Source of the DNA: Cetorhinus maximus
Lineage: Eukaryota
Reading direction: 5' to 3'
Assembly (NCBI RefSeq): GCF_964194155.1
Contig: NC_135901.1
Coordinates: 9,362,001 to 9,426,000 of the forward strand
Length of the DNA stretch: 64,000 bases
Shown: positions 23,250 through 29,129 of the stretch, one piece after another
How the letters are laid out: every line of letters starts with the position of its first letter
How positions within the stretch are numbered: the first letter of the stretch is position 1
Position numbers and translations under genes: made by a program
The notes under the pieces: generated by a model
What the model was told of the DNA's origin: nothing
What the model saw: the letters and a program-made list of their open reading frames with translations, nothing else
Database searches by the model: none

Positions 23250-23570
23250 TGGAACAACAGCAACCTGACCAAGAACCAATCTGTGAGTCTGCCAAGCCCG
23301 CGTCCTCAGCACATTCCTCGACAGTGGTGAGACCTGGACAACATATGCAGGGCAGGAGAAAAGGCTGAACAGTTTCCACCTTTGTCATCTCAACACGTTT
23401 CCTCAGCATCTCTCAGTCATCAACTCGGAGGCCCTGGCACACGCTAATTCCATCAACAGCCGCTCATTACAAAGTAAAAGTGCTGGCTCAGCCACACCCA
23501 TCGGATAGATGATGGCTGTTTACCCAGAGCTCTTCTGTAGGTGAACTGGCCACTGGGTAACAATCCTCTG
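23250..23570 (+). mobile_element. old RTE-clade LINE fragment (host of the Tx1 insertion; continues 28847-29130)
   Basis: Decayed LNSFH..QLRWL.H..R..DG.LP..LL.GELATG; the sequence resumes colinearly after the second TSD copy. Confidence 0.7.
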
Positions 23571-23603
23571 CTTCTCGGCCTCTTGGCTAAGATCAAGTGT
23601 AGT
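23570..23603 (+). ncRNA. U2 snRNA 5' fragment (nt 4-37) forming the head of the Tx1 element
   Basis: gcttctcggcctcttggctaagatcaagtgtagt vs vertebrate U2 GCTTCTCGGCCTTTTGGCTAAGATCAAGTGTAGT: 33/34 identical. The rest of U2 is absent from both flanks. Confidence 0.93.
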
Positions 23604-23620
23604 GTTGCAGGGGCGACACC

Positions 23621-25193: not shown

Positions 25194-28100
25194 ATGGGTT
25201 TAAAGATTGTATCCATAAATGTGCGTAGCATTAAATCTACTACGCGATGTGTTGCGACCTTGGACTACCTAGCCAAGGTCAAAGCTGACCTGTTGTTTCT
25301 GCAGGAGTGTGCGATACCGCACCTCAGCTCCTACAGGCAATGGTCACGATGGTGGTCCCACGGGCCATCGATCTGGTCGGGCGGAAACGACTCTCGTTCC
25401 TCCGGCCTGGGTATTCTGCTGCGGGGAGGCAACTTCACCGTCTCCGAGGTCAAGGAGGTGGTGGGCGGGCGACTCCTGGTAGCAGACGTAATGTACAAGA
25501 ACGCTCCACTCCGGTTAATTAACGTGTACGGCCCGGCACAAGGGGCTGAGCGGCTGGAGGTTTTTCAGCAGCTCCCACTGCTGCTGGCGACCTCCAGGCC
25601 GGTCATTCTGGGCGGGGACTTCAACTGCATCATCGATGCGGCTGGACGATCCGGCAGGGCCGGAAGCAGATTGGACGCTACGTCCAGATCCCTGATGGAA
25701 ACAGTTAAGGATGCCAAGCTGCACGACGTCTTCAGCAACCCTGCAGACGGAGCGCAGCGTAGATACACCTGGTCGCGGCCAGACGGGTCCATTCGTTCCA
25801 GGATAGACTTCCTGTTTGTGTCCCGCGCATTCACAGTCAGATCCACCGAGGTCAAGCCAGTGTTCTTCTCTGACCACTGCCTCCTACTGGCGGACTGCCA
25901 CTTGGAGGAAGACCTGAGGGTGGGCAGGGGGGCATGGAAGCTAAATGTGCAACTGCTGACCCCAGAGAACATTGAGGAGCTCAAGAGGGATTACAAAGGT
26001 TGGAGAACCGTGAAACCCCTCTTTGAGTCCCTGACACACTGGTGGGAAGTGATCAAGGGAAGCATCAAGAGGTTTTTCATCCTCAAAGGCACCCAGAAAG
26101 CTAGAAAGGAACAGAGGGAAATGTCCCGACTCCAGGAAAAGATGCAGAATCTGCTCCGGCTGCAGTCGATGGGGGTCGATGTCAAGGAGGAGCTCCAAGA
26201 GGTGAAGGGCCAGCAAGCCTCGCACTTTGCCTCGGAGGCCTCCAAGATCATCTTCCGTTCCAGAGTCCGCTCCGTGGAGCAGGATGAGACGTGCTCACGT
26301 TTCTTCTTCCAAAAGGTACACAGAGAGCGCTCTGTGATCAGCAGCCTGAAGGAAGAAGACGGCTCAGTAAAGTCATCACGGTCCGACATTCTGAGGATCA
26401 GCAAATCCTTTTATGCCGGACTGTATGACGTGAAGCCCACGGACAGCACGGCCTCCCAGTCCTTCCTGTCCTCTATCACGGAGGTCCTAGACCACAGTAC
26501 GCGGGAGAGCCTAGACAAACCGCTAACTCCTGACGAACTGACTAAGGCCCTCGAGTCCTTCGAGAAGAGTAAAACCCCCGGAAGCGACGGCCTGCCGGCG
26601 GAGTTGTATTCGGCTCTGTGGGACTTGATCGGCCCAGACCTGCTAGAAGTGTACGAGAGTATGCTCCTGGCCGGCAGCATGTCAGAATCCATGAGGAAAG
26701 GCATCATCACCCTCATCTACAAGCACAAGGGGGAAAGGGAGGAAATTAGAAATTGGCGACCCATTTCACTGTTGAATATGGACTATAAGATTCTGTCCAA
26801 GGTCATCGCCAACCGGGTCAAATCCGCTCTGGAATTGGTGATTCACCCTGACCAGACCTGCTCTGTGCCAGGCAGGAAGATCTCTGACAGCCTGGCGCTG
26901 CTCAGGGATACGATTGCCTATGTACAGGACAGGGGTGTGGATACCTGCCTCATCAGCTTGGATCAGGAGAAGGCCTTTGACAGAATATCGCACACCTACA
27001 TGGGGGATGTGCTCTCCAAAATGGGCTTTGGGGAGGGAATTCGAAATTGGATCCAACTGCTCTACACTAACATCAGTAGCGCAGTCTCAATCAATGGGTG
27101 GGAAACAGATAGCTTTCCGATTAAATCTGGAGTCAGGCAGGGCTGCCCTCTCTCGCCTGTCCTTTTCGTGTGCTGCATAGAACCCTTTGCCGAGTCCATC
27201 AGGAAGGATCCGGGCATAAGAGGAGTGACGATCCCAGGCAGTGGAGGCACTCAGGTAAAAGCCTCCCTGTACATGGACGACGTCGCCGTCTTCTGCTCGG
27301 ATCCGCTGTCGGTGCGCAGACTGATGCACGTCTGCGACCAGTTCGAACTGGCCTCGGGAGCCAAGGTAAATCGTGGGAAGAGCGAGGCCATGTTCTTTGG
27401 GAACTGGGCTGACCGATCCTTTGTCCCCTTCACTGTCAGGGCTGACGGCCTGAAGGTGCTGGGGATATGGTTCGGAGGGACCGGGGCATGCGTTAGAAAC
27501 TGGAAGGAGCGAGTGGCTATGGTGAAAAGGAAACTGGGCATGTGGGAGCGACGCTCCCTCTCCATTGCGGGTAAGAACCTGGTCATCAGGTGTGAGGTAC
27601 TCTCGCTGTTGCTGTACGTGGCGCAGGTCTGGCCCATTCCACACTCCTGCGCGATGGCGATCACTCGAGCCATCTTCCGCTTTATCTGGAGGTCGAAAAT
27701 GGATCGTGTCCGCAGGGACGCGATGTACAAGCCTCTAGATAAAGGGGGAAAAAACGTGCCCAACATCGCCCTCATACTGATGGCCACCTTTGTGTGCGGC
27801 TGCATCAAGCGGTGCGTAGACCCTCAGTACGCAAACACCAAGTGTCACTACGTGCTGAGGTTCTACCTGTCCCCGGTGTTGCGAAGGATGGGTCTGGCCA
27901 CGCTGCCGCGGAACGCTCCAAGTAGTTGGACCGTGCCGTACCACCTGTCCCTGGTGGAAAAATTTATGCAGAAAAACACCTTTGACCACAAGTCCATCAG
28001 GCAGTGGTCAGCACGTAACGTCCTAGAGGCCCTGAGGGATAAGGAGAGGGTGGACCCTGTGGGATGGTTCCCCGAGCAGACTGTCAAAGTCATTTGGCAG

Positions 28101-28601
28101 AATGCCTCATCGCCAGAACTTTCCAACAAGCACCAAGACGTAGCTTGGCTGGTGGTGAGAAAGGCCCTCCCCGTCAGATCCTTCCTACACGCCAGGAGTC
28201 TCACCCCCTCTGCACGATGCCCTCGAGGTGGCTGTGGTGGGGAAGAGACCGTTGTTCACCTCCTTGTGGATTGTGCCTTTGCAAAGAAAGTCTGGAGAGA
28301 GATGCAGTGGTTGCTGTCGAGGTTCATCCCGAGCAGTTCTGTGACACAGGACTCTGTGCTCTACGGGCTGTTCCCAGGGACACACACCGAGACAAACATC
28401 AACTGCAGCTGGAGGATCATCAACTCGGTGAAAGACGCGCTTTGGTCTGCCCGAAACTTGTTGGTCTTCCAGCACAAAGAGTTGTCCCCGACCGATTGTT
28501 GCGGACTGGCACAATCCAAAGTCCAGGACTACGTGCTGAGGGACGCACTAAAGCTTGGGGCAGCTGCCGCAAAGGCGCAATGGGGAAGGGTCGCTGTCTA
28601 A
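25194..28601 (+). CDS. Tx1 ORF2p (APE endonuclease, reverse transcriptase, C-terminal zinc finger)
   Basis: 1135 aa uninterrupted; SINVR, LQE, GGDFN, RIDF, SDH; WRPISLL, LDQEKAFD, GVRQGCPLSP, YMDD; CPRGGCGGEETVVHLLVDC. Confidence 0.96.
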   Translation: MGLKIVSINVRSIKSTTRCVATLDYLAKVKADLLFLQECAIPHLSSYRQWSRWWSHGPSIWSGGNDSRSSGLGILLRGGNFTVSEVKEVVGGRLLVADVMYKNAPLRLINVYGPAQGAERLEVFQQLPLLLATSRPVILGGDFNCIIDAAGRSGRAGSRLDATSRSLMETVKDAKLHDVFSNPADGAQRRYTWSRPDGSIRSRIDFLFVSRAFTVRSTEVKPVFFSDHCLLLADCHLEEDLRVGRGAWKLNVQLLTPENIEELKRDYKGWRTVKPLFESLTHWWEVIKGSIKRFFILKGTQKARKEQREMSRLQEKMQNLLRLQSMGVDVKEELQEVKGQQASHFASEASKIIFRSRVRSVEQDETCSRFFFQKVHRERSVISSLKEEDGSVKSSRSDILRISKSFYAGLYDVKPTDSTASQSFLSSITEVLDHSTRESLDKPLTPDELTKALESFEKSKTPGSDGLPAELYSALWDLIGPDLLEVYESMLLAGSMSESMRKGIITLIYKHKGEREEIRNWRPISLLNMDYKILSKVIANRVKSALELVIHPDQTCSVPGRKISDSLALLRDTIAYVQDRGVDTCLISLDQEKAFDRISHTYMGDVLSKMGFGEGIRNWIQLLYTNISSAVSINGWETDSFPIKSGVRQGCPLSPVLFVCCIEPFAESIRKDPGIRGVTIPGSGGTQVKASLYMDDVAVFCSDPLSVRRLMHVCDQFELASGAKVNRGKSEAMFFGNWADRSFVPFTVRADGLKVLGIWFGGTGACVRNWKERVAMVKRKLGMWERRSLSIAGKNLVIRCEVLSLLLYVAQVWPIPHSCAMAITRAIFRFIWRSKMDRVRRDAMYKPLDKGGKNVPNIALILMATFVCGCIKRCVDPQYANTKCHYVLRFYLSPVLRRMGLATLPRNAPSSWTVPYHLSLVEKFMQKNTFDHKSIRQWSARNVLEALRDKERVDPVGWFPEQTVKVIWQNASSPELSNKHQDVAWLVVRKALPVRSFLHARSLTPSARCPRGGCGGEETVVHLLVDCAFAKKVWREMQWLLSRFIPSSSVTQDSVLYGLFPGTHTETNINCSWRIINSVKDALWSARNLLVFQHKELSPTDCCGLAQSKVQDYVLRDALKLGAAAAKAQWGRVAV

Positions 28602-29129
28602 GACCTTTCTACCACAGCGCACCGAGAGACTGGGAACTGTTTAGAGCCCCTCGGGCTGTACAGATCAAAATGAAAGGCTGTAAATGACTGTAATATTGTT
28701 TGTACTGATGCACCTGGTGATACATTTTGTAAAAGTTTAACCTGGATTGTACCCTTGTAATGTTGTTTTTGAAATGGTTTGGAATGTGATTGAAGATTTT
28801 TATGAATAAAGTATATTTTTACAAAAAAAAAAAAAACAATCCTCTGGACATCCAGCTCTCCACTGCAAGGAGGATATGAAGATGGAGGACATTGACACTG
28901 ACAACGGGGAGACAGTTGCCAATGGCTGTGTCCTCTGGAAGCTGACTGCTTGGCAGGGCCTTGGAAGTGGTGTGAAGAAACGGAAAGCTCAGCTGGCTGA
29001 GATGAGGGCCCAGAGCAAACAGAGGCCATTGAATCCTGCACCTTCTCAGCCCACTGCCTTTATCTTCAGCACATGGAGCAGAGGCCTCCATGACTGTGTA
29101 GGGCCCTCAGCCACACCAGGTTATGCTTA

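Follow-up and report, generated by a model that had tools for sequence, protein, structure and literature searches.

A long interspersed nuclear element (LINE) of the basking shark Cetorhinus maximus that begins with a piece of U2 small nuclear RNA (snRNA) is probably, as judged from the genome sequence, a recent off-target copy of a Keno-like, U2-headed family whose source copies, fused to U2 genes, would be driven by the U2 promoter. The element lies in a 64,000-nt stretch of contig NC_135901.1 (assembly GCF_964194155.1, positions 9,362,001 to 9,426,000 of the forward strand), hereafter the window, and consists of the U2 piece (the head), a 17-nt leader, two open reading frames (ORFs) and a poly(A) tail. 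A preliminary description of the window had proposed master copies inside U2 genes. Its genomic predictions held, and copies dispersed elsewhere were found to carry 3' transductions from U2 loci.

Copies of the family inside and outside U2 genes

The leader together with the ORF1 start had 929 exact matches in the genome, or 938 with the upstream bases freed, and the first 60 of the 929 listed (33 on contig C1, 27 on C2) served as the sampled set. U2 sequence stood directly before the leader in 60/60 copies and none of the 60 had a longer 5' untranslated region (UTR), so that neither the head-less copies nor the longer leaders that the preliminary description had named as evidence against itself were seen. 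Only two head-leader junctions occurred, at U2 nt 32 in 45/60 copies and at nt 37 in 15/60, the joint of one form containing one more 5-nt repeat unit than that of the other. As predicted, copies commonly started at U2 nt 1-5 (40/60), and 20/60 started at nt 1. A G preceded 11 of these 20 (background 0.23, p=0.002), often within the duplication; such a G is expected from a copied cap. The unrelated flanks with target-site duplications foreseen for other copies were also found, with duplications of 8-25 bp, a few of them loosely fitting, in 49/60 rows (59 sampled copies with a 3' end found plus the window copy; L081 left out). Full-length matches were 97.5-99.7% identical to the window copy, and both ORFs were kept in 42/60 sampled copies (ORF1 at least 515 and ORF2 at least 1130 amino acids). 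Pattern searches found no ATG in the U2 head and no Sm-like or 3'-box-like motif in the element body. Earlier waves of the family exist, as an older related LINE, ~87-88% identical, adjoins young copies at L136 and L150.

Head type followed descent. On the body tree, the base at U2 nt 16 required 7 changes against 12.2 after shuffling and the junction type 13 against 20.7 (0/1000 shuffles each), and among dispersed copies alone the nt-16 type still required 4 changes against 6.8 (0/1000).

The predicted subset of copies behind U2 upstream DNA and before U2 nt 38 comprised 12 fused copies. A U2 upstream motif led into head and leader at these 12 places, covering all four head types, and U2 nt 38 followed the element in 12/12. 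The same motif led into U2 sequence uninterrupted at 37/38 at 25 places; among eight of these that were inspected, six were whole genes, and the other two contain truncated copies, inserted at nt 46 and nt 51, whose duplication begins at nt 38. Eleven of the 12 fused copies had 0 mismatches in 500 nt of upstream sequence compared with an intact gene, and the twelfth represented a second promoter type. Two motifs, one ending near -45 and the other octamer-like and near -200, are common to the U2 upstream DNA and ten U1 loci, and U2 and U1 genes are both followed by a similar A-rich, 3'-box-like motif; we take these to be the proximal and distal sequence elements (PSE and DSE) and the 3' box.

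Both ORFs were kept in 12/12 fused copies, compared with 42/60 dispersed ones (p=0.03). In a FastTree tree of 73 bodies the 12 fused copies, the window copy and seven other dispersed copies formed one starred 20-row clade, the youngest, while the deepest 23-row clade was entirely of the nt-32 type. The window copy was 14 substitutions from the nearest fused copy, and fused copies differed by 20 on average. Promoter-type-A U2 genes had T at nt 16 (T16) in 19/19 cases, whereas type-A fused copies had C (C16) in 5/11 (p=0.003), indicating that the head was brought in; U2 nt 33-37 were missing in 4/12 fused copies. The simplest reading is that nt 1-37 of the gene are overwritten after pairing with the head of the complementary DNA (cDNA), and the fused copies are likely to act as source copies.

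Dispersed copies retain marks of U2 loci at their 3' ends. The 3' end pattern had 3,602 genome matches, of which 793 (~22%) continued into U2 nt 38 onward, in line with the relaxed specificity claimed before. Of these 793 junctions 32 were on C1-C25 and 761 on C29 or later contigs, and the 68 later-contig junctions among the matches listed were all on C29. We inspected 22 of the 32 junctions on C1-C25 and tested 20 composites for an enclosing duplication. Nearly all inspected junctions were composites of element, poly(A), U2 nt 38 to ~52-58 and a truncated element end, a structure also present in five promoter-fused loci. One duplication of 9-22 bp enclosed the whole composite in 11/20 (two of the 11 A-rich), compared with 0/380 for mismatched flank pairs at a threshold of at least 8 bp, and none of the tested composites had U2 nt 1-37 outside its left end. 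One copy (L135) carried U2 38-191 plus 60 nt of gene flank, and two others (L138 and L141) had one shared joint at unrelated sites. U2-locus 3' transductions inside duplications indicate that RNA of U2-locus copies was retrotransposed to ordinary sites. Private ORF2 codon changes of dispersed copies were non-synonymous or stop in 168 cases (7 stops) and synonymous in 101, whereas changes common to at least three copies were non-synonymous in 25 and synonymous in 36, with no stop (p=0.003 vs private); the excess among private changes points to few source lineages.

At 41 dispersed sites, sequence compared with the U2 30-mer gave 8.7 matching positions (background 7.8 ± 2.4), and no likeness to U2 beyond the junction was found. 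An A followed by a T marked the junction and no TT/AAAA-type consensus was present at these sites, so that the earlier claim of L1-like sites (gt/aaca) is weakly supported. A recurring site starting like the U2 site held 10/60 sampled copies. Dispersed copies were often tandem with the duplication repeated (L035/L036, L058/L059, L060/L061, L071), the mark of repeated hits at one site. A ~170-bp transfer RNA (tRNA)-like short repeat with duplications shared LINE sites (L112, L116, L039, L069, L071, L147) and sat at U2 nt 38 in two fused loci; ARAGORN classed it as tRNA-Arg at a relaxed threshold. This repeat is likely a partner short interspersed nuclear element (SINE) moved by the U2-headed LINE.

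Tandem arrays were found on C30. Each unit comprises the head, the element and its poly(A), followed by U2 38-191 and 104 nt of flanking sequence, and here and there the units are preceded by a promoter with a complete U2 gene. Full array units kept both ORFs in 20/20 cases, were 7-39 substitutions apart and had mixed head types, while their 258-bp spacers were identical in 10/10 cases within one array and different between arrays. A unit without ORF1, in which U2 nt 1-26 run directly into body position 1496, at the end of ORF1 (e.g. L127:1829-5553), had 32 copies, on C29, C30 and C1049 only, with ORF2 full in 10/12 read. If units were copied from their downstream neighbour, adjacent units should resemble each other in their 5' part; the first sixth of the body held 35/215 differences in 12 adjacent pairs compared with 905/3,719 in 178 other pairs, a weak trend. 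The arrays fit a series of insertions, each cDNA being finished by copying the downstream neighbour, with a U2 gene regenerated in front; unequal exchange is a possible origin as well.

The window copy and its insertion site

The window LINE spans 23570-28834 (5.27 kb) with ORF1 and ORF2 both open. Its parts and flanks are as follows, all on the + strand.

23400..23558, +: interrupted old repeat, left part (RTE-like, as we take it to be)
23559..23570, +: left target-site duplication, 12 bp, its final base being U2 nt 4; one copy in five empty paralogues
23570..23603, +: U2 snRNA head, nt 4-37, C16 variant, 'long' junction (Rfam match and alignment to a U2 gene)
23604..23629, +: 17-nt leader and first ORF1 codons; 23607-23629 U1-like, likely a relic U1 head
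23621..25183, +: ORF1, 520 amino acids, two ZCCHC3-type RNA-binding domains and zinc knuckles (ORF and domain search)
25194..28601, +: ORF2, 1135 amino acids, apurinic/apyrimidinic (AP)-type endonuclease (amino acids 21-228), reverse transcriptase (518-759), zinc-binding domain (962-1034)
28602..28822, +: 3' UTR, AATAAA at 28805-28810
28823..28834, +: poly(A) tail; two more A common to tail and duplication
28835..28846, +: right target-site duplication; one copy in five empty paralogues
28847..29046, +: interrupted old repeat, right part

The start at U2 nt 4-37 had been described before, and alignment to the T16 U2 gene of locus L018 bore it out with 33/34 identity, as it did the 17-nt gap to the ATG of ORF1 at 23621; the Rfam U2 match of the head (E 5e-4) was under the gathering score. 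The sole mismatch is the C at U2 nt 16, a natural variant present in 9/50 U2 sequences with an intact 37/38 junction. While the head itself was thus correctly seen, the preliminary description overlooked both the coexisting nt 32 and nt 37 junctions and the likeness of the leader to U1.

That likeness runs from 23607 to 23629, matches U1 snRNA nt 12-34 at 20/23 positions in the closest of ten U1 loci and covers the ORF1 ATG. The comparison was made after the likeness had been noticed. In comparisons made with the first 30 nt, each of the ten U1 loci beat dinucleotide shuffles (0-4/500 reached the score), and 0-3/1,065 window 30-mers reached the U1 score; three more distant ORF1 homologues do not align over the first ~ten residues. 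The 17-nt leader and the ORF1 start codon are probably U1-derived, a putative relic U1 head. A U1-headed subfamily existing today was considered and set aside, freeing the bases before the leader having added at most 9 matches, which were left uninspected. Elsewhere, the sequence right of the poly(A) in one of the 60 sampled copies (L044) resembles the 3' part of U1 snRNA, and at C4:66246408-66246684 a U1 match is preceded, at a distance of ~110 bp, by a U2 5' piece, a possible U2-U1 chimeric retrocopy.

Two ORFs, an AP endonuclease with reverse transcriptase and C-terminal zinc domain, a poly(A) tail and a target duplication place the element among L1/Tx1-type LINEs. The nearest solved structure to ORF2 is LINE-1 ORF2 (E 2.5e-87), with R2 far behind (1e-19). 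The closest named ORF1 homologues were basking-shark proteins (97-100%), and the closest ORF2 matches were unnamed amphibian and unlabelled proteins (~46%), with no labelled Tx1, Keno, Kibi, Koshi or Dewa protein among the ORF2 homologue matches. Window 23621-24400 of ORF1 matches both RNA-binding domains of the host protein family ZCCHC3, and ZCCHC3-like shark and ray gene models may include ORF1 copies of such LINEs. A second AATAAA at 25179-25184, at the end of ORF1, could yield an ORF1-only RNA.

The duplicated 12-mer, AACAATCCTCTG, stands at 23559-23570 and 28835-28846, with its final G serving also as U2 nt 4. On the same contig, five paralogous sites are empty, hold a single copy of the 12-mer each and match the flanks of the window copy over the left 171 bp (100% identical) and the right 200 bp (200/200). 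These empty sites establish the duplication, which encloses the U2 piece as the preliminary description held, and show that the insertion is real, U2 piece included, very recent and younger than those segment duplications. The earlier judgement of intact ORFs and a young family agrees with this and with the identities among full-length copies. No U2 3' part follows the window copy, and its flanks are one continuous stretch of non-U2 DNA, again as had been noted; from their translation we assume them to be an RTE relic. The flank segment (window 23400-23570, paralogues on C24) has at least 6 copies, identical over the compared bases, and only that of the window carries the insertion. Beyond the right flank, at 29100-29870, lies a 5'-truncated copy of another LINE, presumably a CR1/L2-like shark repeat.

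A proposed cycle and its alternatives

The cycle we propose begins with insertion at U2 nt 37/38, as seen at the junctions described above. The U2 head of the cDNA would then pair with and replace nt 1-37 of the gene, rebuilding a promoter-fused source. RNA polymerase II (Pol II) would start at U2 +1, so that full-length cDNAs would all end in a U2 head, and the capped RNA would be polyadenylated and translated. The Sm-like site (U2 nt 98) and the 3' box lie behind the LINE poly(A) signal, so the transcript would avoid processing as an snRNA. Some transcripts continued into U2 nt 38 onward and took it with them to dispersed sites. Dispersed copies, including that of the window, would lack an upstream promoter and mostly be dead ends. 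A fuller account is possible but tentative: the family may be a self-renewing snRNA-promoter parasite without a promoter of its own, bearing a U2-on-U1 fossil 5' stack in which the U1 piece donated the ORF1 start codon. Its on-target insertions would overwrite U2 nt 1-37 or copy the downstream neighbour, restoring an intact U2 gene at the array front, and about four fifths of its progeny would be scattered and promoterless.

Several observations weigh against this cycle. Nine of the 20 tested composites had no enclosing duplication, and transductions mark ~1% of dispersed 3' ends, other sources being possible. The promoter elements were identified by position and likeness, and the case for transcription from the U2 promoter is a genomic one. 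Whether a vertebrate snRNA promoter yields a translatable poly(A) RNA is disputed. Ten of the 12 fused copies are on small contigs, possibly haplotype duplicates, and are to that extent not independent. Head labels still switch 13 and 7 times on the body tree, 30/70 of its forks are weak, and kin share labels.

Two further points count both against the U2 promoter as the sole driver and for an alternative in which the head is inherited and transcription starts at it from an internal promoter of the element itself, situated in the head, the leader or the beginning of ORF1, so that dispersed intact copies are also sources and fused copies are plain on-target insertions. The 42/60 intact dispersed copies could be read from flanking promoters or from such an internal one, and no fused copy in the set belongs to the older clades, whose median distance to the closest fused copy is 47 substitutions; the transduction survey, moreover, was one of U2-locus 3' junctions. 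We nevertheless regard an internal promoter as unlikely, since only 17 nt separate head and ORF1, the contrast between private and shared ORF2 changes points to few source lineages, U2-locus transductions exist, and the promoterless ORF1-less array units never dispersed. The available text of the study of snRNA-headed retroposons also reports no internal snRNA promoter (PMC4494074).

Alternatively, every insertion event might acquire a fresh head, the reverse transcriptase jumping from an element RNA that starts at the leader onto fragments of free U2 RNA. Such jumps do occur, as extra U2 5' pieces before the head (L061, L082, L084, L016, L017) show, with double heads or longer U2 pieces (to nt 39-51) before 3/60 sampled copies, and SINEU-2 is described as having gained U1/U2 5' pieces repeatedly (PMC4494074, in the text available). 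Repeated jumping would, however, give variable joints and many head-less copies rather than a head in every sampled copy and two exact junctions one 5-nt repeat apart, and it does not account for the tracking of the body tree by the nt-16 type, dispersed copies alone included; as the general origin of the heads it is very improbable. A unique chimera or an error of assembly as the explanation of the window copy can be dismissed for practical purposes. Nothing in the data examined spoke for it, 82 copies carry the exact C16/long head-leader junction of the window copy, the leader has 929 matches, and five empty paralogues define the site. A family with U2-fused sources thus remains our preferred reading.

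Comparison with known systems

R2 and Utopia differ from the shark family in machinery: the window element has neither the restriction-like endonuclease nor the single-ORF type of these elements. Like some R2 elements, the shark family carries target sequence and relies on a host gene, and pairing between head and gene has been postulated for R2 elements carrying upstream 28S bases (PMC3774820, in its accessible part), a parallel to the shark head. R2 depends on transcription by Pol I, has a ribozyme and uses an endonuclease of another type, whereas the inferred start of the shark RNA is the gene's own Pol II start. Utopia uses the same U2 site, forms arrays with intact U2 genes upstream in Phytophthora and includes weakly specific families; unlike the shark family it has a restriction-like endonuclease, and no carried head is described in the part of the report available (PMC4640811).

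Keno is closer. It shares the AP-type endonuclease (PMC4640811) and the U2 3' junction, U2 resuming at nt 38/39; the site given in the available text of PMC4640811 and PMC6136364 agrees with the position of about U2 nt 37 given in the preliminary description and with the 793 junctions found here. Unlike Keno, the shark family has ~78% of its 3' ends outside the U2 site. We call it Keno-like and do not file it as Keno because it is not confined to U2, the comparison being one of features, not phylogeny. It also carries U2 nt 1-32/37 along, and the accessible portions of PMC4494074, PMC4640811 and PMC6136364 describe neither fused sources nor U2 transductions for Keno. Our literature search, with Repbase, subscription papers, the 2004 Keno paper and supplements outside its scope, found no report of a shark Keno, a U2-promoter-driven LINE source or a U2 transduction.

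The nearest precedents in structure are the crocodilian Tx1 families with snRNA-derived 5' ends, Tx1-11_Crp with a U2 head and Tx1-2_Crp, Tx1-2B_Crp and Tx1-4_AMi with U1 heads, which are of autonomous type and belong to a group clustering with Keno, according to the available text of PMC4494074. A U2 or U1 5' end shared by the family, which defines such elements, was present in 60/60 sampled shark copies. The crocodilian Tx1-Mar copies are old (85-87% to consensus), prefer Mariner or long terminal repeat elements, and no source locus is shown for them in that text, whereas the shark copies share 97.5-99.7% identity with that of the window, have U2 itself as a target, include fused copies and apparently bear a U2-on-U1 head. 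To the earlier question of whether the structure was already annotated, the answer is therefore divided, since U2/U1-headed Tx1 elements have been published and promoter-fused sources were not found reported (PMC4494074, in part).

SINEU elements likewise have U2 or U1 heads, with recurrent 5' additions, no internal promoter and, in SINEU-3, a 32-bp U2 5' piece (PMC4494074, available text). They are short and non-coding, whereas the shark element is 5.27 kb long with two full ORFs encoding its own proteins. The same source, as far as available, states the transcription of snRNA-headed retroposons as an open question, left open for SINEU with upstream promoters suggested. The shark family makes this question testable, with the whole cycle readable in one genome through candidate source loci, progeny markers (nt 16, junctions and transductions) and empty sites. 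If the proposed cycle is true, coding RNA of 5.3 kb is produced in nature from an snRNA promoter, a LINE can subsist outside ribosomal DNA with no internal promoter, and the U2 loci of the basking shark are heavily loaded, ~760 junctions lying on C29 and later contigs as compared with no more than 25 promoter-bearing genes uninterrupted at nt 37/38. If the self-renewing account also holds, the family, being recently active, would serve as a model of how snRNA-headed SINEs arise and are transcribed. The headed structure and the idea of an upstream promoter are already published (PMC4494074, in its available part); what appears to be new is that the shark family was active recently and has apparent source copies fused to promoters.

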